Below, piece after piece: positions 27,415 to 43,676 of a stretch of DNA of 64,000 bases. Numbering within the stretch: position 1 is the first letter of the stretch; each line of letters begins with the position of its first letter. This DNA is from an uncultured Chloroflexia bacterium. Its GTDB lineage: Bacteria > Chloroflexota > Limnocylindria > Limnocylindrales > CSP1-4. Made by a program: the position numbers and the translations under genes. Location of the stretch: assembly GCA_963705215.1 (NCBI GenBank), contig CAVPJI010000002.1, positions 49,818 through 113,817 on the forward strand, given 5' to 3'. The notes below the pieces were generated by a model. That model was not told where the DNA came from. It did no database searches and saw only the letters and a program-made list of their open reading frames with translations.

Positions 27415-28197
27415 TCAGGCTCCGGGGGCGGCGATCACGATCGCCTCGCCGCGGCGCAGGGCGCGGGCCCGGTTCGACCACATGCGCAGCCGGAGCCCCC
27501 AGAAGTCCTTGACCGCGCGCCAGATGACCGAGGGGTGGGCGCCCGTCGGGGAGCCGGCTGTTCGCGGATAGTGGGGCACCCCCACCTCGACGACCTCCCG
27601 GCCGGCGGCGCGCATCTTGATGAGCAGCTCGGCCGAGAAGAAGGCACCGCCCAATTCGACCCGGACGCCTTCGAGCGCGGCACGCCGGAAGAGCTTGCAG
27701 GCGCAGTCCACGTCGCGGACCCGGAGACCGAACCAGACGCGATTCGCGAGCTTGTAGAGCCGGGCGTAGATCGTGCGGATCGGCGGATCGGCTCGCCTGA
27801 TGCGGTAGCCGACGACGGCGTCCGGGGCATCAGCCTCGTCGAGCCGAGCAACCAGCCGACCGAGGTCGGCAACTCGAAACTGGCGATCCCCGTCGGTGAA
27901 GCAGACGAGGTCGTAGCGGGCCGCCCGGAAGCCTGAACGGAGCGCCGCACCGTAGCCCAGGTTCACCGGGTGGTGGATCGCGCGGACGATGTCCGGATAG
28001 GCGCTCGCGAGGCGATCGGCGATGGCCGGGGTCGCGTCCTTCGAGCCGTCGTCGACGGCGATGATCTCGAAGCGGTCAGCGAGAGCCGGCAACGCGCCCA
28101 GGGCCTCCTCCACGAGCGCCTCGAGGTTGGCCTCCTCGTTGTGGGCCGGGAAGAAGTACGAGAGGGCGGCGACGCGGGCCGGAGTGTCGAGGCTCAT
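27415..28197 (-). CDS. GT2 polyprenol-phosphate mannose synthase-like glycosyltransferase
   Basis: FPAHNEE, AVDDGSKD, NLGYGAALRSG, FTDGDRQF, DVDCACKLFRR. Confidence 0.85.
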   Translation of the reverse strand: MSLDTPARVAALSYFFPAHNEEANLEALVEEALGALPALADRFEIIAVDDGSKDATPAIADRLASAYPDIVRAIHHPVNLGYGAALRSGFRAARYDLVCFTDGDRQFRVADLGRLVARLDEADAPDAVVGYRIRRADPPIRTIYARLYKLANRVWFGLRVRDVDCACKLFRRAALEGVRVELGGAFFSAELLIKMRAAGREVVEVGVPHYPRTAGSPTGAHPSVIWRAVKDFWGLRLRMWSNRARALRRGEAIVIAAPGA

Positions 28198-28247
28198 GGC
28201 GCCATCGTAGCGGCCCGAGCCCCGCGCGGTGGCGGAGCGCATGGCCG

Positions 28248-29795
28248 TCACGCCTCGGGCCGCGGGCCGATCACCCGATAGAGCGGCTGGATGCCACCTG
28301 GATCGGGAACGATCTCCAGGATCCACGTCTCCTCGAGCGCATTGATCTCGGCGGGGTGGCGCACGAGGAAGACTGGCCGCACCGCGACGTTCGCCCGGAT
28401 GACATCGTCCACGCTTCCCAGGCTCTCGTCGAGGCGGTCGCGGTCGTCGACGACCTGGACGTCGGGCCGCTCACCGAGGACGACGGTGCGGTACCAGAGC
28501 GGTGTGGAGAAGCTCCACCACGAGACGATCACCGCGTCCGTGCCCATGGCCGCGAGGGCCCAGCGGCTCCAGTCCGTCGCCCGCGCGTCGTTGGACATGT
28601 CGACCCGCGAGGCTGTGGCGGGGGCGGCCGCGGCCGCCGGGAGTATCAGCGCGACGGCCAGGACGCCCGCGAGGACGCGCGCCCCCAGGCGGCCCCGCCC
28701 TTCCACGGCGGGCAGGAGGGCATCCACGAGGAGTCCGGCGGCGACACCCAGCCAGGCGACCATGACGAGCACGGGCCCCAGGTAGTAGCGGTCGATCGAG
28801 GCATTCGTGTACGAGGACGCGAACCAGCAGGTGACGACCAGCCATGTGCCGGTGAGGAGGACGAACCGGGGGCGCCGCAGGGCGGCCAGCAGGAACGCCG
28901 CGGGCACGGCCACCGCGAGGGCGCCGAGCTGGTCGCCGACGATCCTCACGAGGTCGGCGACCTTGCGCCCGAGATCGCCGAAGGGGTCGACCAGGTCCCC
29001 GCGGAACTGCTCTCCCAGGACGACGTACCAGAAGCCGGCCCACGTGTCCGGATGCCCGTACACGAGGGGAGCGCCCATTGCTGCGCGGATCGGCAGCTCC
29101 AGGTAGACGGCAACCGTGGTGCCGATCAGCGCTCCCGCACAGAGGCCAACCAGGCGCGGGCTGCGGAGGATCCGGCGGTCGACGGCCAGCACGAAGAGGG
29201 CGATGCCGGGCGCCAGCAGGATCGTCAACGTGTGGTTCCCCAGCATTGCCCCGTAGAGGGCGGCGGCGGCCACGAGCCAGCGGTCGGCCCGGGGCGACCC
29301 TGCGTGCCCGCTCCGCTCCCAGCCCACGAGCAGCACCAGCAGCCCCGCCATGAGCGCGAGATGGAGGGTGTGCGGGTCGGCGAAGCCACCCATCCGCCAG
29401 GGGATGGGCGTGAGCACGAGGAGCAGCCCGGCACCCACGGCGACGCTTGTCCGGCCCGCCAGCTGGCGCACGAGGACGACCGTGAGGCCGGCGGCCACGG
29501 CAAGCAGGAGCGCCGAGAGCAGGTTCATCCGGAGGGCTGCTTCGCCGAGCGGTGTCAGCACGATGGTCGCGAGCCAGCCCAGGATGACGTAGCTGGGGTA
29601 GCCGGTCGGGTGGGCCGTGCCGAGGACCGGCGGCACGGACTGGAACTCACCGGTGTCCCAGAACCCCTGGCCGGGCAGGAGGATGCTGCGGGCGAGGCCG
29701 AGGGCAACGAACCCCACGAGGGCCGGCGCGGCCGCGGCCGCCAGCCAGGCCCCCGACGCGGCCGCGACCCAGGAGCGCGCAGCGGGTCCGGTCAC
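28248..29795 (-). CDS. DUF2723 (TMEM260-like) GT-C glycosyltransferase
   Basis: WDTGEFQ...LGTAHPTGYPSYVILG motif; multiple TM; GTGA overlap with upstream gene. Confidence 0.8.
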   Translation of the reverse strand: MTGPAARSWVAAASGAWLAAAAAPALVGFVALGLARSILLPGQGFWDTGEFQSVPPVLGTAHPTGYPSYVILGWLATIVLTPLGEAALRMNLLSALLLAVAAGLTVVLVRQLAGRTSVAVGAGLLLVLTPIPWRMGGFADPHTLHLALMAGLLVLLVGWERSGHAGSPRADRWLVAAAALYGAMLGNHTLTILLAPGIALFVLAVDRRILRSPRLVGLCAGALIGTTVAVYLELPIRAAMGAPLVYGHPDTWAGFWYVVLGEQFRGDLVDPFGDLGRKVADLVRIVGDQLGALAVAVPAAFLLAALRRPRFVLLTGTWLVVTCWFASSYTNASIDRYYLGPVLVMVAWLGVAAGLLVDALLPAVEGRGRLGARVLAGVLAVALILPAAAAAPATASRVDMSNDARATDWSRWALAAMGTDAVIVSWWSFSTPLWYRTVVLGERPDVQVVDDRDRLDESLGSVDDVIRANVAVRPVFLVRHPAEINALEETWILEIVPDPGGIQPLYRVIGPRPEA

Positions 29796-31231
29796 CAGCC
29801 GAGGGTCCGGGCCCAGGCGATACCCCAGGCCTGGATCGCGATGGAGGCCGCCACGAGGACGACCACGACCGCGAGGCGCCCGGGGCGACGCTCCTCCCGC
29901 GGGCCCAGGAACCGCTCCGCCCCCAGCGCCACCGCCACGAGGAGGAAGGGCGCGAAGTCCAGGCTGAACCGATACCCGAACTGGACCCAGCCCTGGCTGA
30001 AGTGCATCAGGTTCACCACCGCGATCGCCGCCGTCGCCACGAGGGCGCCGACGACGCGTCGATCGCGCAGATGCCCCAGGGCCGGGATGGCCAGCAGCCA
30101 GGCCGGGCTGGCCAGCACGAAGCTCATCCCGCGCTGCTCCGGCACGAGCCACGAGCAGCCGGCCGCGCTCCAGGGCGTACGGGCGACGCCGGGGTCGCAG
30201 GGCGGGAGGAGTGTGGGCAGGCCGGCGAGCATGATCCCGAGATTCTGGGGGATGTAGCGGAGATCCTGGAGGGACCACGAGGCCCGGTAGCCGAGATCAG
30301 GGTAGGCGCCGATCTCGTACCGGTAGAGCCCCTCGTAGACGGGGTTGAAGAGCGTTCCCGTCGCCGCCAGGTTGTAGGCGAGGAGCCCGAGGATGGGGAC
30401 GGCCATGCCGATCGCCGCGGACGACCCCCGCCGCCGCCACCCGCCCGCCCCGACGAGCAGCAGGAACGGGAACCCGAACGCGACCGTGAGCCGGCTCGTC
30501 GCGGCCAGCCCGAGCAGGAAGCCGGCGGCCAGCTGGTGGCCGTCGAGCCGTCGCCAGGGGGCTCGCCCTGCCCAGCGCTCCCGCGTTCCGCCGCCCATCC
30601 GCCCCCGCGCCTCCGCGTGCGCCTCGCCGTCGAGGGCGAGCCCGACGGCCGCCAGCGTGAGGCCGACGGCCACGACGTGGGCGAAGTACCAGGTGGAGCC
30701 GAGCGACGCCGCATACCAGAGCGCCGCGCCGGCTCCGATGAAGAGCGTCAGAAGGTTGCGGACCGCCGGACGCACGGCCAACCGGCCGAGGAGCCAGAAC
30801 GCAACCGCCACGTCGAAGGCGCCGATCACGATTGCGAGGAGGGTCTGGTCGGTCGCTAGGCCGAACAGGGCGACGAACGGGAGGAGGACGACCGCCGGAA
30901 GTGGCGGGAACGGGATCATCCCGCGCCCGGTCGGCGCCCCCCGCTCGTCGATGACGACGATCACGTCGTTGAAGTAGTCGTTGCCCGGGCCGGCGGCCGA
31001 TTCGACGACGGGGAACCGGATGGAGAACTGGCCGTCGAGCCAGCCCTCAGCCTGCCAGGCGAAGTGGTTGTAGACGGTCTGGTAGGCCGGCCGAGTGAGC
31101 TGGTAGAGCGCGAAGCAGGCCAGCACGAGACCGAGGCCGACGACCAGCGCGGTCCGGGCCCGGGGGGCGGCCGTCGTGGCAAGGACGCCGCCGGGATCGG
31201 GCGGCGGGCCCTGGGCTATACTCCGGTCCAC
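29792..31231 (-). CDS. GT-C-like polytopic membrane glycosyltransferase (start uncertain, 31231 or 31264)
   Basis: YNHFAWQA, FPPLPAVVLLP, GSTWYFAHV, FGYRFSLD; many TM helices. Confidence 0.65.
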   Translation of the reverse strand: MDRSIAQGPPPDPGGVLATTAAPRARTALVVGLGLVLACFALYQLTRPAYQTVYNHFAWQAEGWLDGQFSIRFPVVESAAGPGNDYFNDVIVVIDERGAPTGRGMIPFPPLPAVVLLPFVALFGLATDQTLLAIVIGAFDVAVAFWLLGRLAVRPAVRNLLTLFIGAGAALWYAASLGSTWYFAHVVAVGLTLAAVGLALDGEAHAEARGRMGGGTRERWAGRAPWRRLDGHQLAAGFLLGLAATSRLTVAFGFPFLLLVGAGGWRRRGSSAAIGMAVPILGLLAYNLAATGTLFNPVYEGLYRYEIGAYPDLGYRASWSLQDLRYIPQNLGIMLAGLPTLLPPCDPGVARTPWSAAGCSWLVPEQRGMSFVLASPAWLLAIPALGHLRDRRVVGALVATAAIAVVNLMHFSQGWVQFGYRFSLDFAPFLLVAVALGAERFLGPREERRPGRLAVVVVLVAASIAIQAWGIAWARTLGW

Positions 31232-31323
31232 CTCAGCGCTCGTTTCAGGAGGCCGTACCAACACCCGTGCCAGGCCCCGCTGCGGGCGAGAGCGCGCGGG
31301 CCGGCGAGCAGGCCCGGGTTCGC

Positions 31324-34300
31324 ATGCGGGACGCGATCATCCCGCTCGCGGTCCTTCTTGCGCTCGGCCTCGCCCTTCGACTCATCATCGCATACGTCCT
31401 GCTGCCCGGCTCCGGGTTCAAGGTCGACCTCGGCAGCTTCGCAGGCTGGGCGATGGAGCTGGCCAAGAACGGGCCGTGGGGCCTCTACGACCGCCCGATC
31501 TTCGTCGACTACACGCCGGGCTATCTCTACGTCCTGTGGGCGCTCGGTCTCGTCTCGCAGGCGTTCGCCATCCCGATCGGCGAGCTGCTCAAGCTGCCCG
31601 CGATCGTCGCCGACCTCGCCCTCGCACTGGCGATCTTCTCCCTCGCCGCCGAGCTCGGGGCGAGCCGCCGGGGCGCCATCGCCGCGGCCGGCATCTTCCT
31701 GCTCGTGCCCGTGACCTGGTTCGACAGCGCCGTGTGGGCCCAGGTCGACTCCGTGGGGACGCTCTTCCTCGTGCTCGCGGTGCGGGAGCTGTGGCGCGGC
31801 AGGTCGGAACGAGCCGCCATCCTGACCACGATCGCGGCGATCATCAAGCCACAATTCGGGATCCTCATCCCCCTCGCCGCCGTCGTCATCATCCGCCGCC
31901 ACTGGGTCGAGCGCCCGGACGACGGCAGCCGGCTGGGCGGCGGCCCCGTCCGGATCGTGACCACGACGCTCGCCGGCCTCGTGACGGCCACGCTGATCTG
32001 CCTGCCCTTCGGGATCACGATCGTGGGCCTGCTGCAGCAGATCGTCCAGACTGCCGGCGGCTACCCGTACCTCACGGTGAACGCCTACAACCCGTGGGCC
32101 CTCGTCACGATGGACGGAGCCGGGCTCGCCTCCTCGGGGACGTGGATCCGCGACGCGCCCAACCCGGAGAACGCGGCCGACCCGTTCTTCACGGTGCTCG
32201 GCATCCCCGCCGTCATGGTGGGAACCACGTTCATCGGGGCCGCGATCGTGGCCCTGATGGTGGTCCTGTGGCGGCGGCACGACGACCGCCGCGCGCTGCT
32301 GGTGGCGCTGGCCGTGATGGCGATCGCGTTCTTCGTCCTGCCCACGCGCGTCCACGAGCGCTACCTCTACCCGTTCTTCGCGCTGGGCGCGATCCTGCTG
32401 GCCCTCCAGCCGCGCTGGGCGGCCATCTACGCGGTGCTCGCGGCCGCCAACTTCGCGAACCTTTACGCGATCCTGACGCTGCCCTTCTATGACAGCCCCG
32501 GCCTGGGGCCGATACTCGACGCGCTGGGTGGCCTGGGGAGGCAGCTCGGGGAGTGGTTCCGCTCGACCGCGGGCGTCACCGCGGCCTCGCTCGCCCATGC
32601 CGGGGGGCTCGTGGCGGCGGCGGTCTTTCTGGCCCGGCCCGCGCGGGGCGAGACGGATCGGACGCTCGACGACGAAGCGGCCGACGACGAAGCGGCCGAC
32701 GACGAAGCGGCTCCGGCGGCGGTCATCGAGACCGCGCCCCGGGCGCCTGCGCCCTTGGCCGTCGCGCCCGCGGCCGTGGCGGCGGCGGCCACCCCGCACG
32801 AGGCCGGCACTGCCCCGCCCCCCGCCTCTCCGGCACTTGACCCACCCGACCTGGCCTACCCGGAGGAGCGCGCCCCCTTCGACCGGTCCCGCGCGCTCGC
32901 CCGCGAGGGCGGCGGACGTCTCGGCCGCATCGACCTGTGGCTTCTCATCGTCCTCGTCGTCGCGGCGCTCTTCCTGCGGACGTTCCGCCTCGGCGAGCCC
33001 ATGCGGATGCACTTCGACGAGGTCTACCACGCGCGAACGGCGATCGAGTTTCTCCAGCACTGGGAGTACGGCGAGCCGCACGGGATCTACGAGTACACCC
33101 ATCCCCATCTCGCGAAGTACGCGATGGCCGTGGGAATCGAGCTCTTCGGGAACAACCAGGTCGTCGCGCAGGCCGACCTCGGGACGGCGGTCGACGACGC
33201 GGCGGTGGAGCCGCGCTGGGACGAACCCGGCGGGACCGGCCCGGGCGCGATGACCCGCGGGGGCGAGCGCCTGTACCTGGCGACGTCGGATGGGCTGGAG
33301 GTGCACGACCTGCGCACGCGCGCCCTGATCGTCCGCTACGCCGTGCCGGGCGCCCTGTCGGTCGCCATCGACACGGACTCGCACGTGGCATACGTGGGAA
33401 CGGCCGGAGGCGAGATCCTCGCCTTCGCCACGGACGTCCCCGCGGACGAGCTGAAGACTGCCCCTCCCGCCCGCGGGCCGGCTCTCCTCGCCGTCGCGGG
33501 CGCACCGGTCCAGCGGCTCTGGGCCGCGGGCGACGGCGACTACCTCGTGGCGGGGACGCCGGACGGGGGCCTCGTCACGATCGACGCGGCAAGCGGGATC
33601 GAGCTCTCACGGACGACGCTGGATGGGCGTGCCGAGGTCGTCGACGCCGGGCGTGTCACCGCCCTGGTCGCCACGCCCGCGGAGGTCCCCGACCCCGCCG
33701 CCGCGGCCGCCGAGGTCGTCCTCCTCGTCGGTGGCGACGAGGCCGCCCATCGCGCCCGACTGGAGCAGGACCTGCCGCGCGTGGTCGTGACCACGGACGT
33801 CGCGGCCAACCGCGAGGCGATCGATGCCGCGATCGCGGACGGCTCCCTGGCCGGGTTCTCCGTCGAGGACGTGCCGCGGGTCGCTGTCGCCGACGCGGCC
33901 GGCGTCACGTTCCTCGAGCCGGCCACGGGGAGCATCACGGGCGCCGTGCCCCTCGCCGATCCCGCGACGGGGCTCGTGGCCGTGACGGGCCTGGATGCGC
34001 CCACCCTCTACGCGGCAAGCGGAAGCACGCTCTCAGTCGTGGAGATCCCCACGGGCGACTCGGCCGCCTCGCTCAAGCAGAGCGTCTGGATGCCGGGCGC
34101 TGTCGAGCGGATCGCCTTCAACGACGCGACCCAGCTCGTCCACGTCCTGGGCCGGACCCCGGACGGCGCCGCCAGCACCGTCTACGTGGTCGAGCCGCGC
34201 GGCAACTCCGTCTTCGCCGACGCGGCCATCCCCTTCGCGCCGGCCGCCTGGGCCATGGATACGGCTGCCGCATACCCGAGCGACGACCGCCAGCAGCTCT

Positions 34301-36471
34301 TGCTGTTCGCCGCGGACGGCCCGAGCGCGTCGGTGGGCCTGGGCCAGAACGCCTTCGCGTGGCGCGTGCCGGGCATGGCCGCCGGCGCCCTGATGGCTGG
34401 TCTGCTCTTCCTGCTGGCCCGCGTCCTCTTCCGGCGTCGCTCGATCGCGGTGATCGCCGGCCTGCTGGTCCTCGCCGACGGGATGCTCTTTGCGCAGTCC
34501 CGGATCGCGATGAACGACGCCTACGTGGCCCTCTTCATCGTGGCCGCGCTGGCGGTCTTCGCCCCGATCTGGACGGGAGCCTGGCGCTGGCGCGGCGCCT
34601 TCTGGGTGGGGCTGCCGGTGGTCGGCCTCCTCCTGGGGCTCGCCCTGGCCTCGAAGTGGGTGGGCCTCTATGCGATCGGCGGGATCGCGCTCCTGGTCCT
34701 GCTCCGCTCCGCCCTCGGCCGGGCGCTCATCGTGGTGGGCCTCGCGGCCATTGCGGCCAGCCTGGGCTACATCGGCATCTCCACGGGCCCCGAGGCGACG
34801 AGTGGCGGCAACGTGGCCTTCCTGCTGCTCATGATCGCCCTGACGATGATCGCCTCGGCGGTGGCGGTCCTCCATCCTGTGGCCTGGACGGTGGAGGAGG
34901 TCCGGATCGCCGTGGGCGGCCCGGCCGTGGTGGGTGCCCTCATCGGACTGGCATCCATCCCGCTCGGCCTCGGCTCGACCGCACAGGCCCTGGCCGTCGG
35001 CCTGATGGCGATCGGCGGCGCCGCGGCCGGGGCGTTCTGGCTGGCCGCGCGCCTCGGCCTCGGGCCGCTCGCCCTGCCGCCGGCGCCCGACGACCCGGCC
35101 GCCCTGCTGGAGCCGGCGGAGCCGGCGCCGGCCGGATGGCTGCGGCCGGGCTGGCTGGCGGGCCTGCCGATCGTGTGGGCGGGCCTCTGCCTGCTCGGGA
35201 TCCCCGCGCTCGTCTACGTCGTCTCCTATCTCCCGTGGGCCGCCCTGGGGAACCAGATCGTGACCGGGTGGCCGGCCGGGCACGACGGGCAGACGCTCGC
35301 TGACCTCATCCGCGGGATGTACGACTACCACAACAACCTGCGGGCGACCCACGCCGCGGCGTCGCCGTGGTGGGCCTGGCCGGCCAACCTGAAGCCCGTC
35401 TGGTTCTACCAGGAGTCCTTCGCCGGCAACACGGTCGCTGCGATCTACGACAGCGGCAACCTTGCGGCGTGGTGGCTCTCGATCCCGGCCTTCGCCTTTG
35501 CCGCGTGGCAGGCCTTCCGAAGACGCAGCCTCGCCCTGGCGTTCATCACGATCATGTTCGCGTCGCTCTGGCTGCCCTGGGCGCGCATCGACCGGGCGAC
35601 GTTCCAGTACCACTACTACACCGCGCTGCCCTTCGTTCTCCTGGCCCTGGCCTATCTCGCGGCCGAGGTCTGGCACGGGCCGAGCCGCCGGACATGGCGC
35701 CTGGCCCGGGCAGCCGCCGCGGGCGCCCTCCTGGCCCCGGTCGTGATGTGGCTCTTCCGGGGCCCCCTCTGTGCCCTCATCGACGTGGAGAAGGCGAACC
35801 CGGGGTCCCAGGCCTGCACGATGGCCGCCGCCCTGCCCATCACCCTCACCCAGCAGGCCGTCGGCCTCATGCTCATCATCGCCGTCGCCGGCACTGCCCT
35901 CGTCTGGCAGCTCCTCCGGACGGACCGGGCCGTGCGCCGCGGGGCCGGGTCGGATGAGACCCGCCCCGGGGTCGTCCGGATCTGGCTCACCGCCGCGGTC
36001 GCCCTTGGGGCCCTCGTCGTCGCGGCCGTGCTCCTTCCCCCGACGCCGCTGGTCGAGACCGCGAGCATCCCGGGCGAGCTCCTCGCCCTGCTCCTGCTCG
36101 GGGTCCTCGGCCCGCTCGCCTGGGTCACCTGGCGAGCGACCTCGCCGCGCCGCTACGCCGTGGGCGTCGTCCTCGCGGCCGGCTTCATGTTCGTGCTGTT
36201 CTACCCGAACATCGCGGGCCTGCCGCTTCCGAGCGCCGTCTACAACTGGTACCAGGGCCTGCTTCCAACCTGGCTCTACCCGTTCCAGTTCCCGGTCAAC
36301 ACCGACCCGGCCGTGAGCGTCCCGCTCCTGAGCCCGTGGCCGTTCATCCTCTTCGCGGCCGTGCTGATCGCCGCGGCTGTCGTGGCCTACTCCGCGTGGG
36401 TCTGGCGGCTGGCGCTGGCGGAGCGGACGGCGGAGGGCGACGGCACCGAGAACGGGGCCCCCTCGGCCTGA
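31324..36471 (+). CDS. giant double GT-C protein: GT87/PIG-M-like N-domain fused to PMT-type (GT39) mannosyltransferase with large soluble insertion
   Basis: N-part DYTPGY, WAQVDS, IKPQ, RVHERY; C-part FDEVYH, THPHLAK, SRIAMND, ASKWVG, HAAASPWWAWP, FQYHY. Confidence 0.8.
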   Translation: MRDAIIPLAVLLALGLALRLIIAYVLLPGSGFKVDLGSFAGWAMELAKNGPWGLYDRPIFVDYTPGYLYVLWALGLVSQAFAIPIGELLKLPAIVADLALALAIFSLAAELGASRRGAIAAAGIFLLVPVTWFDSAVWAQVDSVGTLFLVLAVRELWRGRSERAAILTTIAAIIKPQFGILIPLAAVVIIRRHWVERPDDGSRLGGGPVRIVTTTLAGLVTATLICLPFGITIVGLLQQIVQTAGGYPYLTVNAYNPWALVTMDGAGLASSGTWIRDAPNPENAADPFFTVLGIPAVMVGTTFIGAAIVALMVVLWRRHDDRRALLVALAVMAIAFFVLPTRVHERYLYPFFALGAILLALQPRWAAIYAVLAAANFANLYAILTLPFYDSPGLGPILDALGGLGRQLGEWFRSTAGVTAASLAHAGGLVAAAVFLARPARGETDRTLDDEAADDEAADDEAAPAAVIETAPRAPAPLAVAPAAVAAAATPHEAGTAPPPASPALDPPDLAYPEERAPFDRSRALAREGGGRLGRIDLWLLIVLVVAALFLRTFRLGEPMRMHFDEVYHARTAIEFLQHWEYGEPHGIYEYTHPHLAKYAMAVGIELFGNNQVVAQADLGTAVDDAAVEPRWDEPGGTGPGAMTRGGERLYLATSDGLEVHDLRTRALIVRYAVPGALSVAIDTDSHVAYVGTAGGEILAFATDVPADELKTAPPARGPALLAVAGAPVQRLWAAGDGDYLVAGTPDGGLVTIDAASGIELSRTTLDGRAEVVDAGRVTALVATPAEVPDPAAAAAEVVLLVGGDEAAHRARLEQDLPRVVVTTDVAANREAIDAAIADGSLAGFSVEDVPRVAVADAAGVTFLEPATGSITGAVPLADPATGLVAVTGLDAPTLYAASGSTLSVVEIPTGDSAASLKQSVWMPGAVERIAFNDATQLVHVLGRTPDGAASTVYVVEPRGNSVFADAAIPFAPAAWAMDTAAAYPSDDRQQLLLFAADGPSASVGLGQNAFAWRVPGMAAGALMAGLLFLLARVLFRRRSIAVIAGLLVLADGMLFAQSRIAMNDAYVALFIVAALAVFAPIWTGAWRWRGAFWVGLPVVGLLLGLALASKWVGLYAIGGIALLVLLRSALGRALIVVGLAAIAASLGYIGISTGPEATSGGNVAFLLLMIALTMIASAVAVLHPVAWTVEEVRIAVGGPAVVGALIGLASIPLGLGSTAQALAVGLMAIGGAAAGAFWLAARLGLGPLALPPAPDDPAALLEPAEPAPAGWLRPGWLAGLPIVWAGLCLLGIPALVYVVSYLPWAALGNQIVTGWPAGHDGQTLADLIRGMYDYHNNLRATHAAASPWWAWPANLKPVWFYQESFAGNTVAAIYDSGNLAAWWLSIPAFAFAAWQAFRRRSLALAFITIMFASLWLPWARIDRATFQYHYYTALPFVLLALAYLAAEVWHGPSRRTWRLARAAAAGALLAPVVMWLFRGPLCALIDVEKANPGSQACTMAAALPITLTQQAVGLMLIIAVAGTALVWQLLRTDRAVRRGAGSDETRPGVVRIWLTAAVALGALVVAAVLLPPTPLVETASIPGELLALLLLGVLGPLAWVTWRATSPRRYAVGVVLAAGFMFVLFYPNIAGLPLPSAVYNWYQGLLPTWLYPFQFPVNTDPAVSVPLLSPWPFILFAAVLIAAAVVAYSAWVWRLALAERTAEGDGTENGAPSA
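32668..32712 (+). repeat. 15-bp coding tandem repeat x3 (DDEAA) in interdomain linker
   Basis: GACGACGAAGCGGCC repeated three times (last ends ...GCT). Confidence 0.85.
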
Positions 36472-36474
36472 CGA

Positions 36475-37653
36475 TCAGCCGAGAAGGCGCCGGTCCGGGG
36501 GCACGTCGGCCGTGAAGTGGGCCGGCAGCCCCCCCTGCGCCGCGAGACGGCGGACGACGAACCCGTAGTAGGACTCGACGCGAGCAGCGATCCGGTCCCA
36601 GCCGAACTCCTGGACGCGGACGAGGCCGCTTTCCCGCATGCGTTCGCGGAGCACGGCATCCGCGAGCAGGCGAAGGATCGCCTTGGCGAGCAGCCGGTGG
36701 TCGCCCGGCGGCACGAGGAGGGCCTGCTCGTCGCGCTTCACGACGCCCTTGTAGCCGTGGATGTCACTGCAGACGATCGCGGTGCCGGCCGCCATCGCCT
36801 CGAGCAGGACGATCCCGAAGCTCTCCCGTCCGGTCGCCGGCGAGACGTAGACGTCGGCCGTCTTGTAGAGCTGGATCTTCTCCTGGTCCGAGACGCGCCC
36901 CAGGAACTCGACGCCCGCGAGACGCCGGGTCATCACGTACCGCCGGGCCTCGCGCTCGAGCGGCCCGGAGCCGACGACCAGGAGGCGGGCGTCGCTGCCG
37001 GTCCGGCGGACCAGCCGGAACGCCTTGAGGAGGTGCAGGAGGCCCTTGCGCGGCTCCAGGCGCCCCACGAAGAGGATGTTCGGCCGGCCATCCTGCCAGC
37101 GGGCCAGCGGGACCGCGTGGGCGAAGAGGCGGAGGTCCACGCCGTTCGGGATCACCTTGTAGTCGCCCGGCAGGTAGCGGTCCGCGAAGTGGCGGGCGGC
37201 GGCGCTGACGGCAATGCGCCCGTGGAGCCGGCTTGCGGCGACCGGGCCGAGCATCCGACCGCCGATCTGGTAGCCCGGGGCGTAGCCGGCGAAGGCGTGG
37301 AACGTGGCGACGTTCACGCTCCTGGATTCACGCAGGGTCATCAGGGTCAGGAACGGGACGAAGGGCTCGTGGAAGTGGAGCAGGTCGAACTGCTCGTGCT
37401 CCAGCACGTCCCGGATCTGGGACCGGTAGCGCGGGGAGACCGTCAGGGTGCCGACTGAGCCGTTGGCCGGCACGGAGAAGCCCTTGCCGATCCGGATCAC
37501 ATCGCCCTCCGACCTGCGCTGCAGGCCGTGGCTGGCGGTCAGGATCCGGACGTCGTGGCCCCGGACGCGCAGGCTCTCGTAGAGGTGGCCGACGTGGTCG
37601 TTGACGCCGCCCGGGAGCGGGTAGACGTACGGCGTCACCAGGCCGATCTTCAC
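36475..37653 (-). CDS. pimA: GT4 phosphatidylinositol alpha-mannosyltransferase PimA-like
   Basis: MKIGLVTPY...PGGVNDH, VPANGSV, LHFHEP, FVGRLEPRKG, GRESFGIVLLEAMAAG; operon with pgsA/ino1/acyltransferases. Confidence 0.82.
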   Translation of the reverse strand: MKIGLVTPYVYPLPGGVNDHVGHLYESLRVRGHDVRILTASHGLQRRSEGDVIRIGKGFSVPANGSVGTLTVSPRYRSQIRDVLEHEQFDLLHFHEPFVPFLTLMTLRESRSVNVATFHAFAGYAPGYQIGGRMLGPVAASRLHGRIAVSAAARHFADRYLPGDYKVIPNGVDLRLFAHAVPLARWQDGRPNILFVGRLEPRKGLLHLLKAFRLVRRTGSDARLLVVGSGPLEREARRYVMTRRLAGVEFLGRVSDQEKIQLYKTADVYVSPATGRESFGIVLLEAMAAGTAIVCSDIHGYKGVVKRDEQALLVPPGDHRLLAKAILRLLADAVLRERMRESGLVRVQEFGWDRIAARVESYYGFVVRRLAAQGGLPAHFTADVPPDRRLLG

Positions 37654-38516
37654 GGAGGCCCCCCTCCTCGGGTGGGGAGGATCGCCGACCCATCCAGCCT
37701 CGGTGGCCGCCGGTCGCCGCCCGGGTAGCCGTGATCGCGCCCCGTGCCGTCGCGCCGGACCCGACCCCCGACCTCGGCCCGGATGTCCCGCCCGTACTTG
37801 CGGAGCTGGCGGCCGAAGGTCGGGAGCTGGGACGCCGTGCCGTGGAAGCTCCCATGCCAGCCGGTCCGATGCTCCAGGATGGCGTTCCGGACGTCCTCCG
37901 CGGTGTGCCCGGGGAACGTCGTCCAGCCGATCCCGACGCTGGCCGCCTCGTGGGCGTCGCTGTTCCCCACGACCGCCAGGCCGAGCTCCTCGGCGAAGGC
38001 GACCACGCGGCGGTGCACGGGCCGCCCGAATGTCGTCGGGTTGAAGGCCTCGACGCCGTCCGGCCGGACGCGCGGGTCGGGGGAGGCGAGGAGCGCCCGC
38101 AGCGTCCAGGCCTGGGCGCACAGGGGATAGGGGAAGAGCGGGTGGGCCGGGATGGCCAGGCCACCCTGCTCGTGGACGAGGCCGATCGATTCGCGCAGCG
38201 AGCGGAGCGGGGGCACGGCCTCCTCGATGAAGAGGGCCAGGAGGTGGCCGCCGCGGGTCGACACCTCCTCGCCGATCACGACCTCCACGGGCAGGTCGCG
38301 CGCCCGGGCGATGGTCCGGGCGGCGTGGGCGGCGTCGACGCGCTCATGGTCGGCGATGCCGATGACGTCGAGCTGGGTGTGCTCGAGGACGTACGCCAGG
38401 ATCTCCTCGACCCCGCTCACGCCGTCGGAGGCGAGCGTGTGCACGTGGAGGTCGGCGCGGCCATGGGCGACATCGAGGTCGGGGCCGGTCGCTGAATGGA
38501 GGATGGCCGCGGTCAT
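37650..38516 (-). CDS. PHP domain phosphoesterase
   Basis: ADLHVHTLASDG, ADHE, GEEVSTRGGHLL, IPAHP, GNSDAH. Confidence 0.88.
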   Translation of the reverse strand: MTAAILHSATGPDLDVAHGRADLHVHTLASDGVSGVEEILAYVLEHTQLDVIGIADHERVDAAHAARTIARARDLPVEVVIGEEVSTRGGHLLALFIEEAVPPLRSLRESIGLVHEQGGLAIPAHPLFPYPLCAQAWTLRALLASPDPRVRPDGVEAFNPTTFGRPVHRRVVAFAEELGLAVVGNSDAHEAASVGIGWTTFPGHTAEDVRNAILEHRTGWHGSFHGTASQLPTFGRQLRKYGRDIRAEVGGRVRRDGTGRDHGYPGGDRRPPRLDGSAILPTRGGGPP

Positions 38517-39541
38517 CGCGCCGGCCCGCCGGCTGTCGGTGATCCCGCCGTCGTGGTGCCGCTCCGACGCGCGCGCGGCCCGACCTCCTCCCAGATCGGG
38601 AAGAAGACGGTCCACCACTGTTCCGGAGCGAGCGCGATGAACGCCTCGAACGCCTCTGCCTCGGCTTGGAGCAGAGCCTCGATCCGGGCGCGGCGGGGCA
38701 GGTCGGCGGGCGGGTGCGGCACCGTGATGAGCCCGCCCCGGAACGCCTCACCGTTCGCGCGCCAGACGGCGGCGACGTGGAGCGGCACCCCGTGCTCGAG
38801 GGCGAGGTAGGCTGGCCCCATCGGGAGCCTCGTCGGCCGGCCGAAGAGCGTGACCGGCACGCCGCCACCGGCGATGTCGCGGTCGGCCACGATCCCGACG
38901 CCCTCCCCCCGCGCGAGGGCGTCGCCGAGCGCGCGCCGGGCCTGGTCGAGGCCCACGATCCGCGCCCCGCCGCTCTCACGCGCCCGCCGCAGGAGCCGCT
39001 GGAGCTCCGGATCGTCGATGGTCTCCATCGGCCCGGTGATGGGGACCCGGCAGCGATCGCCGAGCACGGTGGCGGCGCCGGCCATCGACCCGAAGTGGGC
39101 CGTCACGAAGACCACTGGGCCCGGCGTCGCGAACGCTGCGTCGACCGGGGCGGGAACCTCGATCAGCAGGCGGCGGCGGAGGTCACGGGCGCTCGCCGCG
39201 CCGCGCAGCGTCTCCGCGTACATCCGCACGCTGTGCCGGAAGGCCGCTCGCACGAGGTGCTCCAGGGCCGCCTGATCCGTGGCAGCCGAACGCGCCCGGG
39301 CGCTGCCGCGGCCGGTCGCCGCCAGCCGGGCCGCCACGTGGGCGAGGTTGCCACGGGCGCGAGCCGCACGACCGGGGGCGGCCCGGTACCAGAGCTCGCC
39401 GGCCGCGTCGCACAGCCCGCCGACCACGGTCGCAGGGAGGTGCGCGAGAACGGTTCCCAGGGCGCCGACGAGGCTCGCCCGGGCACGCTGCATGGTCGTG
39501 CCGCGCGTCTCTGCCGGCCGGCCCACGCCCGCCCCGGTCAT
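38513..39541 (-). CDS. PatA-like lysophospholipid/PIM acyltransferase, paralog 2
   Basis: TAHFGSM, IVADRD, FGRPTRLPMGPAYLAL, APEQWWTVFFPIW. Confidence 0.78.
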   Translation of the reverse strand: MTGAGVGRPAETRGTTMQRARASLVGALGTVLAHLPATVVGGLCDAAGELWYRAAPGRAARARGNLAHVAARLAATGRGSARARSAATDQAALEHLVRAAFRHSVRMYAETLRGAASARDLRRRLLIEVPAPVDAAFATPGPVVFVTAHFGSMAGAATVLGDRCRVPITGPMETIDDPELQRLLRRARESGGARIVGLDQARRALGDALARGEGVGIVADRDIAGGGVPVTLFGRPTRLPMGPAYLALEHGVPLHVAAVWRANGEAFRGGLITVPHPPADLPRRARIEALLQAEAEAFEAFIALAPEQWWTVFFPIWEEVGPRARRSGTTTAGSPTAGGPAR

Positions 39542-40596
39542 CCGGCGGCTCCCTGCGTGGCCGAGCCCAGGTCTCGCAGCGCGCGCTCGGCGAGAAGCGC
39601 TTCTTCGGTCGGGTCTTGGGGCCACATCGGCTTGAAGACGCACCACTGCTCGGGCGCCTCGCGGACGGCCACCTCGAGGGCATCGGCGATGGCCTGCGTC
39701 GCGCGCGCGATCTCGGCCGGCTCGGCGGAGGCCACGAGGATGGGCGTGCCGATCTCGCCGAGGAAGGTGCCGTCCGGGCGGCGGATGGTCCAGAAGGGGA
39801 CGATGGTCGCACCGGTGCGCGCGGCCAGGATGGCCGGGCCGGACGGCAGCGTGGTCCACGACCCCAGGAAGCGGACCGGCTGTCCATCCGGGCGGTAGCC
39901 CCAGTCGACCAGGAGCCCGAGGATCTTGCCGTTGCGCAGGACGCGGTAGACCTCGCGCAGGTTGCGCCAGCGGATGACCTCGATGCCCCAGGCTCGTCGC
40001 TGGGCGACGAAGCGCTCGAAGAGGTCGTCGTACGCCGTGTCGTCGGCGAGGTAGTGAACCGGCCAGCCACGGCCCGCGAGCGCGGCGGCCGCGACCTCCC
40101 CGTTCCCGATGTGAAGCCCGGCCAGGATCACGCTGCTCGAGGCCAGCCACGCTTCGTGGAGGCGATCAGGCCCTTCGCCCGTGAACATGGCGACGTGCTC
40201 CGCGTTCGTCATCCGGACGAGGTGCATGCCCTCGAGGACCCAGCGGACCTGGCTGCGGAAGACGGCCCTGCCCAGGGTGTCGACCCGCGGGTCGGTCGGC
40301 GGCAGGGCCAGGATGCGCGCGGCGTTGGCGCGCACGTAGCGGCGCTTCTCCGGCCAGAGCCGGTAGACAACGTCGGAGATCCAGCCGCCGATGCGGACGC
40401 TCGGCTCGAGCGGGAGCCGACCCAGGACCCACGACCCGCCGCGATAGGCCGCGACCACGAGCTTCTCGCGGAGTCGCGGCCCGCTCTTCTCCCGACGATG
40501 GGGCGCCCGAAAGCGCCCCTCGTCGTCGTTCGTCGCCTCGGAGCCCGGCGCCGCGGCGGGTGCCGCGCCGGCCGGGGATCCAGGGGCGGATGTCAC
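39538..40596 (-). CDS. PatA-like lysophospholipid/PIM acyltransferase, paralog 1
   Basis: [42 protein letters not shown]. Confidence 0.8.
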
Positions 40597-41849
40597 GTGG
40601 CGGCGACCTTGGCGGGCGCCTTGGCGAGAGTCCGGAGCTTGCGCTCGACCGTCTTCTCGGTTCCGATGAGGGTCTCGTTGTCATCGCCGCGGATGAACGC
40701 CTCGACCCGGTTGAAGGCGATGTCGTCGTGGAGCTGCGCCGGGGGGCTCTTCATGAAGTAGCTCGACGGAGCGACGAGGGTGCCCTTGAGGCCGCGGTCC
40801 AGGCCCAGCTTCATGCAGCGGATGGCGTCGGTGATGACGCCGGCGCTGTTCGGGCTGTCCCAGACCTCGAGCTTGAGCTCGGCGCGGAGCGGCACGTCAC
40901 CGTAGGTCGTGCCCTCCATCTGGATGTAGCAGAACTTGCGGTCGGTCAGCCACGGAACGTGGTCGCTGGGGCCGACGTGGACGTCGCCGGGCTCGAGCTC
41001 GTAGTCGAGCATCGAGGTGACCGCGTTCGTCTTGCTGATCTTCTTGCTCTCGAGGCGCTCGCGCTCGAGCATGTTCAGGAAGTCGGTGTTGCCGCCGAAG
41101 TTCAGCTGGTAGGTCCGGTCGAGGCGGACGCCGCGATCCATGAAGAGGCGGGTCATGACGCGGTGGGTGATCGTCGCGCCGACCTGGCTCTTGATGTCAT
41201 CGCCGATGATCGGGAGGCCCTCCTCAGCGAAGCGGCGCTGCCAGTAGGGCTCACGGCCGATGAAGACCGGGATCGCGTTGACGAAGCCGACCCCGGCCTT
41301 GAGGGCCTGCTCGGCGTACCACTTCGTCGCCTCCTCGCTCCCGACCGGGAGGTAGGAGACCATCACGTCGACCTCGCGCTCCTTGAGGATCCCGACGATG
41401 TCGGCCGTGGGGCCGGGGGCCTTCTCGATGACCTGGCTGAGGTACTTGCCCAGGCCGTCGTGGGTCATCCCGCGATCGACCTTGACGCCCATGTGCGGGA
41501 CCTGCTGGAAGACGATCGTGTTGTTCGGGTGCGCGTAGATCGCCTCGGAGAGATCCTTGCCCACCTTCGTCTTGTTGATGTCGAAGGCGGCCACGAACTC
41601 GATGTCGCGGACGTGGTAGCCACCGAGGCTCACGTGCATGAGGCCGGGGACGAAGTCCGTCTCCTTGGCGTTCTCGTAGTAGTAGCGGCCCTGGACGAGG
41701 CTGCTCGCGCAGTTCCCGACGCCCACGATGGCGACGCGGACCTTGCCGTCCTTGCGGTTCGCGCCGGCCCAGGCCTTGCCCGTTCCGCTGGCGGCCTTCG
41801 CGCCGTTGCCGTTGCCGCTCACGCTGGTGCTTCCATTCTTCTTCGCCAT
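40593..41849 (-). CDS. ino1: myo-inositol-3-phosphate synthase
   Basis: [62 protein letters not shown]. Confidence 0.96.
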
Positions 41850-41902
41850 GATGTGGTTCCTGGTGCCTCCTGCGATGGGTGGGTGGGTGTGGGTTAGTAA
41901 GG

Positions 41903-42622
41903 TCAGCTCGCCCGGGTCTCGCCCTCCGTCGCTGATGCGGCCGCGTCGAGCGCGGCCGAGCGGGCCTGGGCGCGCGTGTGGAGCACGCGCTGGATGACCG
42001 TGATGGTGGCGCCGAGGGCGATGATCGCGAGGGCGCCCTCGATGACCAGGATCCCGATCGGGGTCGCCGCGCCACCCGCCCCGTCGCCGGACGAGACGGC
42101 CTCGGTGCCGAGCAGGCCGCCCAGGACCAGGCCGCCGCACAGGATCACGAGGCGGATCTCGCGGGGCATCACCCCGACGGCCGCCATGCCGGTCCCGGCG
42201 GAGAAGCCGAGCCCCTCCGACTTGGCCCGGGCGTAGCTGACGAGGAAGGCGGAGGCCATCGCGGCGGCGGCGAGGATCGGGGCGTTTGCCCAGCCGCTGG
42301 CCGACAGGCCGGCCACGAGGCCGACGTAGACCAGGGCCTCGCCCCAGCGATCGAAGACCGAGTCCATGAAGGCCCCGAGCTTGCTGACCTTGCCCGTCGC
42401 GCGGGCCAGGGTCCCGTCGAACATGTCGAAGACGCCGCCGGCGAAGACGACGAGGCCGCCGGCCACCCACAGCTGGAGGCCGAGGAGAATGGCGCCGATC
42501 GTCGTGATCCCGAACCCGATGAGCGTCAGCCCGTCGGGGGTCAGGCCGAGCCGCCCGAAGAAGAGGGCGATCGGCTCGCCGATCTTCTTGACGCGGCCGC
42601 GCGTGTCGTTCGAGATCGTCAT
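41903..42622 (-). CDS. pgsA: CDP-alcohol phosphatidyltransferase (phosphatidylinositol phosphate synthase)
   Basis: [43 protein letters not shown]. Confidence 0.9.
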
Positions 42623-42624
42623 GC

Positions 42625-42957
42625 TCAGCTCATTCCAAGGATGGCCCGCTCGCGCGCCGCGACCTCGCCGAATGCCTCGGGGCGCAGGGAGCAGATCGTC
42701 TCGCGGCCGGCCCGGCGGGAGACGACCAGGCCTGCCTCGCGAAGACGGCGCAGGTGATGGCTGACAAGCGGCTGGCTGAGGCCGACGTGGTCGATGAGAT
42801 CGCCGACGCTGGCCGGGCCGTCGGCAAGGCGACGGACGATCCGCAGCCGGTTCACGTCGGCCAGGGCCTTGTGGAAGGTGCGGATCTCGCGGAGGTCATC
42901 CGGCTGGTCGACGATCGAGGCGATCGTGGAGCGGAAGCGCGCGGGCGAGGGGCTCAG
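42625..42957 (-). CDS. ArsR/SmtB family transcriptional regulator (probable CTG start at 42957)
   Basis: [43 protein letters not shown]; SD GGAG 7 nt before in-frame CTG. Confidence 0.85.
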
Positions 42958-43004
42958 GGGTTCGCTCCGATCGGGTCGGGGTCTCGCCGGCGACGGCGAG
43001 CAGC

Positions 43005-43062
43005 AACGCTCGTTTATATAAAGCGTCGTTGATGGTAGGCGCGTGCCGCGCGACGTGTCAAG
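43005..43062 (-). promoter_or_regulatory. promoter and palindromic operator of arsR-pgsA-ino1-patA-patA-PHP-pimA operon
   Basis: Minus strand TTGACA, 18 nt, TACCAT, immediately followed by CAACGacgcTTTATATAAAcgagCGTTG (20/28 symmetric). Confidence 0.7.
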
Positions 43063-43130
43063 AACCTGAACCTGACCCGGTGGCGGCGAGCCCGCCCGAA
43101 GAGCCGGCTCCGGCCTCCCGCCCTCGCCAA

Positions 43131-43333
43131 TGCCCGCGTGGGCGTCACCAACGAGAATCCTCGCCGACGCCGGGCGCCTGAGCAGGGCCGGGATCGCCGG
43201 TGGCGGCCGCACTCCTTCGCTTCTGCATCTCCTCGAGGACAGTGACGAGGAATTGCAGCCACCCCGGGCCTCGCTGCCCGCGCCGGATCTCCTGATTGGG
43301 GCGAGTCGTCCGACGGTGACGCCCACAGCGGCA
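43131..43333. ncRNA. candidate ~200-nt rod-shaped structured RNA (strand unknown)
   Basis: Nested in-register helices: 43138-49/43315-26 (perfect 12 bp), 43160-65/43300-05, 43199-204/43258-63, 43223-27/43254-58, 43230-35/43246-51. Confidence 0.4.
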
Positions 43334-43373
43334 TATGCGAGGAAGTTGGCGGCGCGCGCGGCAAGCACGACCG

Positions 43374-43676
43374 TCACGGGCGCTTCGAGTCGCCACCGTG
43401 CTTCCGGCGCCGCGGGACAGACTCCCCTTTGGGGGGTGGCAGATCATCGTCGGCTCCCGCCGCACCGGCGGCACCGGCTGCATCGGCGGACCCCGCCGCC
43501 CCGGCGGCCCGGCCGCGCTTCACCTGGGCATCGAGAACCTGCTTGAACTGCTTGGCCAGGCCGGTCCGCATCCCGGCGCGCCGGGCCGCCGCCGCGTCGT
43601 GGTCGCGCCGGCGGGCGCGCGCGGCCTCGGCCGGCGGCAGCTCGTCGGATTGGTCGTCGGGCTGCTTGGGCGTCAT
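43374..43676 (-). CDS. small hypothetical protein
   Basis: 100-aa ORF downstream of CYTH gene; helical core GMRTGLAKQFKQVLDAQVK. Confidence 0.55.
   Translation of the reverse strand: MTPKQPDDQSDELPPAEAARARRRDHDAAAARRAGMRTGLAKQFKQVLDAQVKRGRAAGAAGSADAAGAAGAAGADDDLPPPKGESVPRRRKHGGDSKRP

Follow-up and report, generated by a model that had tools for sequence, protein, structure and literature searches.

A putative actinobacterial-type phosphatidylinositol mannoside operon and a neighbouring glycosylation module in Limnocylindrales (Chloroflexota)

The stretch of 64,000 nucleotides analysed here, hereafter the window (contig C2:49818-113817), comes from a 2.54 Mb metagenome-assembled genome (MAG), 81% complete, of a member of the Limnocylindrales. 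On its minus strand it carries a coupled operon headed by the gene of an ArsR-family regulator (36475-42957; unit 1), which would assemble an inositol glycolipid at the cytoplasmic side of the membrane. A second group of genes next to it (unit 2) encodes glycosyltransferases (GTs) of the GT-C and GT2 types, which are predicted to act on acceptors outside the membrane. We consider that an inositol glycolipid operon lying beside an extracytoplasmic glycosylation module best explains the region overall, with a probability of about 0.7. The sequences show which genes are present, how they are coupled and what they resemble, and also that catalytic residues and, across the phylum, gene order are conserved; the enzyme activities, the sugars, the role of the PHP protein and the acceptor of the GT-C enzymes are inferred from this.

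In the proposed pathway, Ino1 would convert glucose-6-phosphate into inositol-3-phosphate, and a phosphatidylinositol phosphate (PIP) synthase, PIPS, would join this product with CDP-diacylglycerol to form PIP. A PHP-family phosphoesterase, whose role is suggested by its genomic context, would then take the phosphate off PIP to give phosphatidylinositol (PI). A PimA-like GT4 would add one hexose, most likely mannose from GDP-mannose, yielding the phosphatidylinositol mannoside (PIM) PIM1. Finally, two acyltransferases, AT1 (a putative PatA orthologue) and AT2 (a Chloroflexota-specific paralogue), would acylate the product to mono- or diacylated PIM1.

The putative inositol glycolipid operon

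Open reading frames (ORFs) were chosen by their third-position G+C content (GC3 frame plots) in a window of about 72% G+C, start codons were placed by means of frame switches and start/stop overlaps, and the genes were typed with Pfam and NCBIfam. A preliminary description of this DNA had proposed the gene order arsR-pgsA-ino1-acyltransferase-acyltransferase-PHP-pimA, with mostly overlapping or closely spaced genes, and the Pfam and NCBIfam matches together with the GC3 plots confirmed every gene at the coordinates given. The gene of the ArsR-family helix-turn-helix (HTH) regulator comes first (42625-42957; Pfam HTH_5, 62 bits), followed on the same strand by those encoding PIPS, a CDP-alcohol phosphatidyltransferase of family PF01066 (the pgsA of this order; 41903-42622), Ino1, a myo-inositol-3-phosphate (L-myo-inositol-1-phosphate) synthase (40593-41849), the upstream PatA-type acyltransferase AT1 (39538-40596; PF03279, Lip_A_acyltrans, 96.8 bits), the downstream PatA/LpxL-family acyltransferase AT2 (38513-39541; PF03279, 78 bits), the PHP-family metal phosphoesterase, a candidate PIP 3-phosphatase (37650-38516; PHP_C 47 bits, PHP 21 bits), and the PimA-like GT4 (36475-37653). 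The first two intergenic gaps measure 2 nt (arsR-pgsA) and 53 nt (pgsA-ino1), and the remaining four junctions are 4-nt start/stop overlaps of the form GTGA or ATGA (40593-40596, 39538-39541, 38513-38516 and 37650-37653).

The assignment of the last gene as pimA, also part of the preliminary description, is backed by homology in both directions. The best match of the GT4 protein in the PDB is Mycobacterium smegmatis PimA (2GEJ/4N9W; 2.4e-59, 204 bits, residues 1-364), while the next solved GT4 reaches 83 bits, PimB' 71 and MshA 63. A reverse tblastn search with M. smegmatis PimA against the host genome returned the GT4 gene first (37.7% identity, 188 bits), and its only other match there is a partial one of 54 bits on contig C10. 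The nucleotide-sugar motifs of the two proteins align, with GRLEPRKG in the GT4 standing against GRYDEPRKG in PimA, ESFGIVLLEAMAAG against ESFGIVLVEAMAAG, and HFHEP against HIHEP; the RxxxxxK and ExFG...E motifs of PimA are presumably residues of its nucleotide-sugar site. A second GT4 of the PimB' type was not found, as no other GT4 in the host genome (81% complete) resembles the PimA-like protein at E<1e-5.

PIPS has its best PDB matches among PIP synthases from Renibacterium and Mycobacterium (5D91/5D92, 6H53 and 6WM5). When aligned to 5D92 and 6H53, it is seen to keep the D1xxD2G...D3xxxD4 signature. The whole inositol-phosphate pocket is retained as well, with equivalents of R94, S132, Y133, K135, R137, R152, R155 and R195, the pocket residues of the Mycobacterium tuberculosis enzyme (Grave et al., PMC6506517); within it, K135 is replaced by R and R137 by K, which amounts to a K/R swap. 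Ino1 matches PF01658 at 118 bits (cut-off 27) and is 64-83% identical across the phylum. Its best NCBIfam model is TIGR03450, named 'mycothiol_INO1' (531 bits over 1-355 of 355). This name, together with weaker matches to MshA and DIPPS, could be taken to mean that the GT4 and PIPS make another inositol product, either GlcNAc-inositol of the mycothiol type through an MshA-like step or di-myo-inositol phosphate through a DIPPS-like one. Scores and domain content led us to reject both variants as highly improbable: MshA reaches 63-74 bits where PimA reaches 204, DIPPS 31-46 bits where PIP and archaetidylinositol phosphate synthases reach 55-125, no cytidylyltransferase domain is fused or adjacent, a Pfam scan of the cluster detected no genes like mshB, mshC or mshD, and two lipid acyltransferases of the PatA type share the operon.

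Both acyltransferases are closest to PatA among solved structures. For AT1 the best matches are 7OJT/5F2T at 1e-16, against 6e-4 for LpxM, and for AT2 the best match is 5F2T at 3e-11, with LpxM at 6e-4 or weaker. The catalytic histidine is kept in both, in LHIGNGE of AT1 and AHFGSMA of AT2; we take His126 and Glu200 to be the catalytic pair of PatA. An unrooted maximum-likelihood tree was built from 33 acyltransferases of 20 clusters and M. smegmatis PatA (MsPatA), which forms a long branch. All 15 downstream copies, drawn from 13 families and including AT2, form one clade with a support of 100/98, and the upstream copies, AT1 among them, fall on the other side of this split, where MsPatA and the copies of clusters with a single acyltransferase also lie. 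Because the tree places AT1 with MsPatA and AT2 in the other clade, it suggests that AT1 is the counterpart of PatA. AT2 would be an old, separate paralogue that presumably differs in its acylation target. A lipid A function of the LpxL/LpxM kind was considered for both proteins and rejected, since PatA scores far higher and no Omp85 was found in 16 genomes of the host's family.

Strong homology and phylum-wide synteny (see below) thus support the proposal, already put forward in the preliminary description, that unit 1 is an operon for PI and acylated PIMs (AcPIMs): PimA is matched at 204 bits, PatA is the best match of both acyltransferases and the PIPS pocket is kept. Some features of the enzymes weigh against it. 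All NCBIfam equivalog cut-offs are missed, by PIPS (archaetidylinositol phosphate synthase, its best model, 124.8 bits with a cut-off of 180; PIPSynth 108.6 with a cut-off of 170), by the two acyltransferases (PRK07920, 140.7 bits for AT1 and 109.7 for AT2, with a PatA cut-off of 209) and by Ino1 (531 bits with a trusted cut-off of 638), and these proteins are therefore divergent members of their families. The position of PatA Glu200 is occupied by Asp in both AT1 and AT2. Moreover, the identity of 38% between the GT4 and PimA is too low for sugar or acceptor specificity to be read from it.

Upstream of the ArsR gene lies a promoter-like site, TTGACA-18-TACCAT (43032-43061, minus strand), which is a consensus match only; it is the sole sigma-70-like match in 42500-44500, where shuffled sequences gave a mean of 0.0. 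Since no ATG, GTG or TTG occurs between this site (43061-43032) and the HTH, the gene has no canonical start and likely begins at CTG 42957 or ATC 42924. ATC 42915 is a further non-canonical option. An ArsR gene stands at the head of the cluster in many Chloroflexota families. Farther upstream, a 172-aa ORF (orf172; 43708-44226, minus strand) is conserved beside the ArsR gene, though not outside the host's family. It gave no Pfam match at E below 0.01, and its N-terminus, MGNDTGLEIERKYLL, resembles ExExK, which we take to be a signature of CYTH/triphosphate-tunnel enzymes.

The PHP phosphoesterase and its possible role in the dephosphorylation of PIP

The PHP protein is, by its genomic context, the best candidate for the step from PIP to PI, and we hold this assignment to be somewhat better than an even bet. 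It is favoured because the operon context is fixed, the PHP copies form one orthogroup and the genome lacks PgpA: this family, which provides the PIP phosphatase of Bacteroides, was not found in the host genome. The mycobacterial PIP phosphatase has been described as 'yet-unidentified' (PMC6506517).

A comparison with 20 relatives showed the metal-ligand motifs of the PHP protein (H24, H26, D56-H57, E83, H91, H125 and D187-H189) to be invariant or conserved at 90% or more, and every member has a basic and aromatic tail C-terminal to the PHP core. Foldseek matched the AlphaFold2 (AF2) model to 7UG9, 2ANU and 3E38 with a probability of 1.0, and the nearest folds to this weak model are RNase AM, TM0559 and the pAp phosphatase Cv1693.

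Genomic context ties the gene to inositol lipid genes. We surveyed the best 150 PHP matches in 301 Chloroflexota genomes. Among these matches, PHP abuts a PimA-like gene in 81 of the 98 that are comparable, from at least 16 families, and in all of the top 42. In PimA-less genomes of family f23, it occurs in a mini-cluster of the form ArsR-PHP-(174-aa protein)-PIPS (L120, 8978-12040; L123, 8917-11297). Stand-alone PHP orthologues were seen in 17 PimA-less genomes, of which 16 encode Ino1 and 15 a PIPS-like protein. In the PHP tree the operon-linked, PIPS-linked and stand-alone copies make up one orthogroup that follows taxonomy. The host has a second PHP gene outside the window (C2:13470-13994), whose product is 33% identical to the operon PHP and falls far outside this orthogroup. 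As a further observation on the mini-clusters, a large NYN-domain protein is encoded after that of L120, and the close relatives L113 and L114 have PHP and NYN with no PIPS between them.

A competing explanation is that PHP is not the PIP phosphatase at all. It would instead be a TrpH/RNase AM-like phosphoesterase of nucleotides or RNA, or else a phosphatase of inositol phosphate or another small molecule, whose place in the operon has regulatory or unrelated causes, and another enzyme would dephosphorylate PIP, as in mycobacteria. We regard this as a serious contender, if the less probable of the two. The closest solved relatives, RNase AM, the pAp phosphatase Cv1693 and PolIII PHP domains, act on nucleic acids or nucleotides, and the NCBIfam matches point the same way (RNase RNM 9e-13; nucleoside bisphosphate phosphatase 1.5e-7). 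PHP has no predicted transmembrane (TM) helix. It is also missing from many PI clusters, for example in a small-genome family with only Ino1-GT4-PIPS, and one genome (G271) has PHP and neither Ino1 nor PIPS. The AF2 model, being poor (pLDDT 61), counts as a further weakness of the PIP phosphatase assignment and was used for fold confirmation only. On the other side, PHP has the same slot between an acyltransferase gene and pimA across at least 16 families, with translational coupling, it stays beside PIPS after the loss of PimA, and its copies form a single orthogroup apart from the host's other PHP paralogue. In addition, the host genome has no member of PgpA, the one family of bacterial PIP phosphatases known so far, and the basic and aromatic tail would suit binding at a membrane interface.

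Compared with TrpH/YciV (RNase AM) and Cv1693-type proteins, which include its best matches 9ETK, 7UG9 and 2YB1, the operon PHP shares the fold and the full His/Asp/Glu set. It differs from them in an identity of only about 16-24%, a conserved tail of its own, its place in a lipid operon and an orthogroup separate from that of the host's other PHP protein.

Distribution in Chloroflexota and known inositol lipid systems

By lineage, the host belongs to the Chloroflexota (class Limnocylindria, order Limnocylindrales) and not to the Actinomycetota, so that an actinobacterial origin, which the preliminary description had named as a refuting case that would make the locus less novel, does not apply. 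Relatives of the PHP protein with 63-88% identity and a wholly syntenic 20-kb neighbourhood come almost entirely from Chloroflexota MAGs (Limnocylindrales/Chloroflexia). Limnocylindria are common in soil and fresh water, and the related MAG records are environmental. Omp85/BamA was not found in 16 genomes of the host's family under a search in which seven diderm controls scored, and a sortase gene lies near the operon (window 47197-48183). Because Omp85 is absent from these 16 genomes and the sortase gene adjoins, the earlier reading of the host as a non-actinobacterial monoderm is supported.

A PimA-like gene (E<=1e-30, typically 41-49% identity over the full length) was found in 226 of 301 Chloroflexota genomes and in 138 of 171 genera. 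The cluster [ArsR]-Ino1-AT-AT-[PHP]-GT4-PIPS, in which the bracketed genes vary, is present in at least 20 diverse loci from distant families; in the host's class, PIPS has moved to the front of the operon. Because the PimA-like gene is so widespread and the cluster recurs in such diverse loci, unit 1 appears as an old, phylum-wide feature that is not peculiar to the host genome and not obviously a recent import. A reduced version was observed in small genomes of about 1.4-1.9 Mb from other families (L086/G132, L087/G021, L089/G008 and L094/G123; G021 and G132 are single contigs), which have only Ino1-PimA-like-PIPS. The lack of acyltransferase and PHP genes in these lineages suggests a non-acylated glycosyl-PI and another PIP phosphatase.

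The host genome has no PF01066 gene besides PIPS, and the same is true of 12 of the 13 high-quality genomes of its family, while other families of the class have an additional strong PgsA-like gene. PLD-type synthases are weak or absent in most members of the host's family. In the host genome, PLDc_2 gave two matches only, each of 21 bits and inside a 1114-aa frame, and the idea that they represent Cls or Pss was left without an assignment. Since PIPS is the only CDP-alcohol phosphatidyltransferase in the host's family, inositol lipids are probably major membrane lipids there. If the pattern holds, they would be the main lipids derived from CDP-diacylglycerol, and these bacteria may lack phosphatidylglycerol, phosphatidylserine and cardiolipin and rely on inositol lipids. 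In one cultivated species of Chloroflexota, PI is reported to be a major polar lipid (PMC12453558).

PIMs and their PI anchor are regarded as a hallmark of the Actinomycetota. The closest known system is accordingly the actinobacterial pgsA1-patA-pimA operon (M. tuberculosis Rv2612c-Rv2611c-Rv2610c; structures 6H53, 5F2T and 2GEJ), with which unit 1 shares the combination of three enzyme families in one operon. The PIPS residues are kept, PimA is the best match in both directions and AT1 lies on the PatA side of the tree. The Chloroflexota operon differs from it in its host phylum, in having ino1 and an ArsR gene within the operon, in the separate clade of AT2 and in the PHP gene before pimA. 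Furthermore, no PimB' was found and the proteins score under the NCBIfam equivalog cut-offs. The M. tuberculosis locus presumably has a Nudix/HIT neighbour, which has no counterpart at the Chloroflexota operon.

A second comparison is offered by Bacteroides thetaiotaomicron, in which a MIPS (BT_1526), a PIPS (BT_1523) and a dedicated phosphatase (BT_1525) are likewise clustered. This cluster makes PI via a PIP intermediate (Heaver et al. 2022, PMC9246714). Its phosphatase is a member of PgpA, a family that the host genome lacks, whereas the candidate proposed here has the unrelated PHP fold. The Bacteroides pathway also continues to inositol sphingolipids and not to mannosylated or acylated PI. 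Heaver et al. (PMC9246714) describe inositol lipids as rare in bacteria and as mostly confined, in the accepted view, to Actinobacteria and Spirochaetes, with Bacteroidetes as a further group. Our literature search returned nothing relevant that links Chloroflexi with pimA or PIMs, and a broader one on PHP phosphatases brought up protein phosphatases only.

The region would thus represent an early PIM pathway of the actinobacterial type in another phylum, and what appears new in it is the PHP candidate, the second acyltransferase clade and a class-specific giant GT-C neighbour. If the PimA/PatA/PIPS operon is ancestral and widespread in Chloroflexota, the picture of PIMs as an Actinomycetota hallmark would have to be revised, and the operon would bear on the evolution of PI glycolipids in the Terrabacteria. 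It also supplies candidates for two enzyme gaps, the PIP phosphatase and the second PIM acyltransferase. For the Limnocylindria, the data suggest an unusual membrane in which inositol lipids predominate and, besides it, a giant glycosyltransferase specific to the class.

The GT-C and GT2 genes and their relation to the operon

The GT4 gene, with its stop at 36475, converges on a giant ORF (31324-36471, plus strand) that encodes a protein of 1715 aa, and the two stops are 3 nt apart. A second coupled operon, on the minus strand and with GTGA overlaps at 29792-29795 and 28248-28251, runs divergently from the giant gene. It consists of orfC, which encodes a divergent membrane protein of GT-C fold with 11 predicted TM helices (29792-31231), a gene for a TMEM260-like/DUF2723 GT-C with 9 predicted TM helices (28248-29795; PF11028 at 72.3 bits with a cut-off of 24.2, PMT_2 at 25 bits) and a gene for a soluble GT2 of the polyprenyl-phosphate glycosyltransferase type (ArnC/DPM1/GtrB-like; 27415-28251; PF00535 at 102 bits). 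The three GT-C genes of the preliminary description were thus recovered and contain four GT-C modules in all. In the scheme that we propose, the GT2 would load polyprenyl phosphate with a sugar that is probably mannose, and the transfer of this sugar outside the membrane would fall to the four modules.

The giant protein had been described as a double GT-C. It does contain two GT-C modules, and a soluble region of about 465 aa has to be added between them. About 10 TM helices lie in module A (residues 1-450), and residues 1-520 gave weak matches to Alg6_Alg8 (7e-4) and GT87 (3e-3; PF09594 at 17.9-19.3 bits, below the cut-off of 25). A TM helix (533-551) leads into the soluble region (552-1017), which is weakly propeller-like (PQQ_2); this region corresponds to window positions 32980-34375 and has the position expected of the first outside loop of the PMT module. 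The PMT/GT39-like module spans residues 1018 to 1700 approximately and exceeds the cut-offs of both PMT (47-57 bits; cut-off 22.7) and PMT_4TMC (44-47 bits; cut-off 32.4). Positions 1-79 of the Pfam PMT model, at the N-terminal end of the domain, lie outside the alignment, and the bacterial Pmt equivalog NF058602 is matched at 44.5 bits, far from its cut-off of 800. Three blocks of the protein are conserved in all relatives, and the fused form was present in each of 33 sampled genomes of the class.

Profile searches with module A and with OrfC against PDB sequences gave nothing meaningful, and OrfC has no Pfam match. Its AF2 model (pLDDT 77, pTM 0.82) has top Foldseek matches that are all GT-C proteins, namely Pmt4, PimE (9DM5), AglB, ALG3 and AftD, with probabilities of 0.99-1.0 and TM-scores of only 0.33-0.46.

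The preliminary description had called the GT2 a polyprenol-phosphate-mannose synthase. The enzyme type is upheld by the matches in the PDB (ArnC 56 bits, Pyrococcus furiosus DPMS 41, GtrB 30) and NCBIfam (ArnC 58.5 and PpgS 57.9, both far under their cut-offs), and a role as donor synthase is favoured by the translational coupling of the GT2 gene to two GT-C genes. The protein has no TM helix. Mannose specificity does not follow from these scores, in which ArnC stands above DPMS. Characterised GT39 and TMEM260 enzymes use polyprenyl- or dolichyl-phosphate-mannose, and since these are the families of the neighbouring GT-Cs, the sugar of the GT2 is probably mannose.

Gene order provides mixed evidence on whether the two units belong together. 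About 80 related loci retain the order sortase-CorA-MFS-orf172-ArsR...GT4-giant-orfC-TMEM260-GT2-BFN, and since the PI core also recurs in at least 20 distant families, the arrangement is not due to chance. A functional link between the units is weakened by the fact that the same syntenic block holds dnaN, recF, CorA, MFS and sortase genes near oriC; adjacency may reflect synteny alone. Because the block includes such unrelated genes beside dnaN-recF, the synteny between unit 1 and unit 2 is not specific. The giant gene abuts the PI operon in the host's family only, lies 5-8 kb from it in the sister family and 27 kb from it in a 1.2-Mb genome of the same order.

The preliminary description had seen here a complete locus for an inositol-anchored mannan glycolipid, a mannoprotein layer or both. 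An integrated pathway of the lipomannan type would have acylated PIM1 flipped across the membrane and elongated outside by the GT-Cs with polyprenyl-phosphate-mannose, giving a counterpart of lipomannan or lipoarabinomannan, and we consider it unlikely. The immediate adjacency of the units in all of the roughly 80 Limnocylindrales-type loci and their closeness in the sister family would agree with it, as would the weak GT87 and ALG6 matches of module A, the presence of PimE among the top matches of the OrfC model and the very small number of other glycosyltransferases of these types in the host genome. A GT87 gene exists elsewhere in the genome; this only clear match to the PimE/MptA family (C22:19585-20595, plus strand, 47.7 bits) lies in a frame of only about 337 aa, which is small for the family, and has no linkage to the PI operon. 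Against this pathway, the GT-C genes form transcription units separate from the PI operon, the linkage of the units is lost outside the class where the PI operon is retained, and in the order-mate the giant gene is 27 kb away from the operon. The only GT-C matches above cut-off are to protein O-mannosyltransferase families, module A stays under the GT87 cut-off (19 against 25 bits), and with no PimB'-like second GT4 found, the mycobacterial route from AcPIM2 to AcPIM4 would not be possible in its known way. The idea of one complete mannan locus is therefore only partly supported, given the separate transcription units, a linkage limited by family, no GT87 above cut-off in the neighbourhood and no PimB', and the mannoprotein half of the earlier claim is the better supported through GT39 and TMEM260.

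With synteny mixed, PimB' not found and the GT-C families pointing to protein O-mannosylation, we treat the inositol glycolipid operon and the glycosylation module as neighbours with a possible link. Family membership favours Ser/Thr residues of secreted or wall proteins as the acceptor of the GT-Cs, and an extension of the PIM anchor is possible as well.

Among known glycosylation systems, unit 2 resembles actinobacterial Ppm1/Pmt (GT39) and eukaryotic TMEM260 in that a GT2 lies beside GT-Cs of the PMT and TMEM260 types, with PMT and PMT_4TMC matched above their cut-offs. It departs from Ppm1/Pmt in the fusion of the PMT module behind a GT-C module and the soluble region, in a 1715-aa protein that is confined to the class, and in a GT2 closer to ArnC than to DPMS; the Pmt equivalog score is likewise low. 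The likeness to PimE, MptA and MptB, the GT87 enzymes by which PIMs and lipomannan are elongated with polyprenyl-phosphate-mannose, consists in the GT-C fold of OrfC, with 9DM5 among its best matches, and in the weak GT87 match of module A. It is limited by a GT87 score of 18-19 bits against a cut-off of 25, by the low TM-scores of OrfC and by the location of the clear GT87 gene on another contig.

A more far-reaching combination of these elements is in our estimation a long shot. In it, the Limnocylindrales, with PIPS as their only CDP-alcohol phosphatidyltransferase, would have PI and acyl-mannosides of PI as their main and perhaps sole glycerophospholipids, PHP would be a new phosphatase of PI 3-phosphate outside the PgpA family that supplies a step with no assigned enzyme in mycobacteria and archaea, AT2 would acylate the inositol ring, and unit 2 would extend the PIM anchor into a lipomannan-like polymer. 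We know of no enzyme for the Ac2PIM step, the acylation of the inositol ring. If all of this were true, the host would be a monoderm outside the Actinomycetota with an inositol-anchored glycan coat.

Two further observations concern the relatives of these genes. Outside the class, only weak stand-alone homologues of module A were seen, while the PI operon persists. One homologue from another family (f25; G140:C25:3499-4833) is far closer than the others, with 47% identity in an 805-aa frame, and could be the result of a transfer or an unfused ancestral form. The same operon was also seen in records labelled Verrucomicrobiia, Sulfomarinibacteraceae and 'Patescibacteria group' (L043, L070 and P0062); these genes are 68-82% identical to those of Limnocylindrales, and the records are probably mis-binned contigs.

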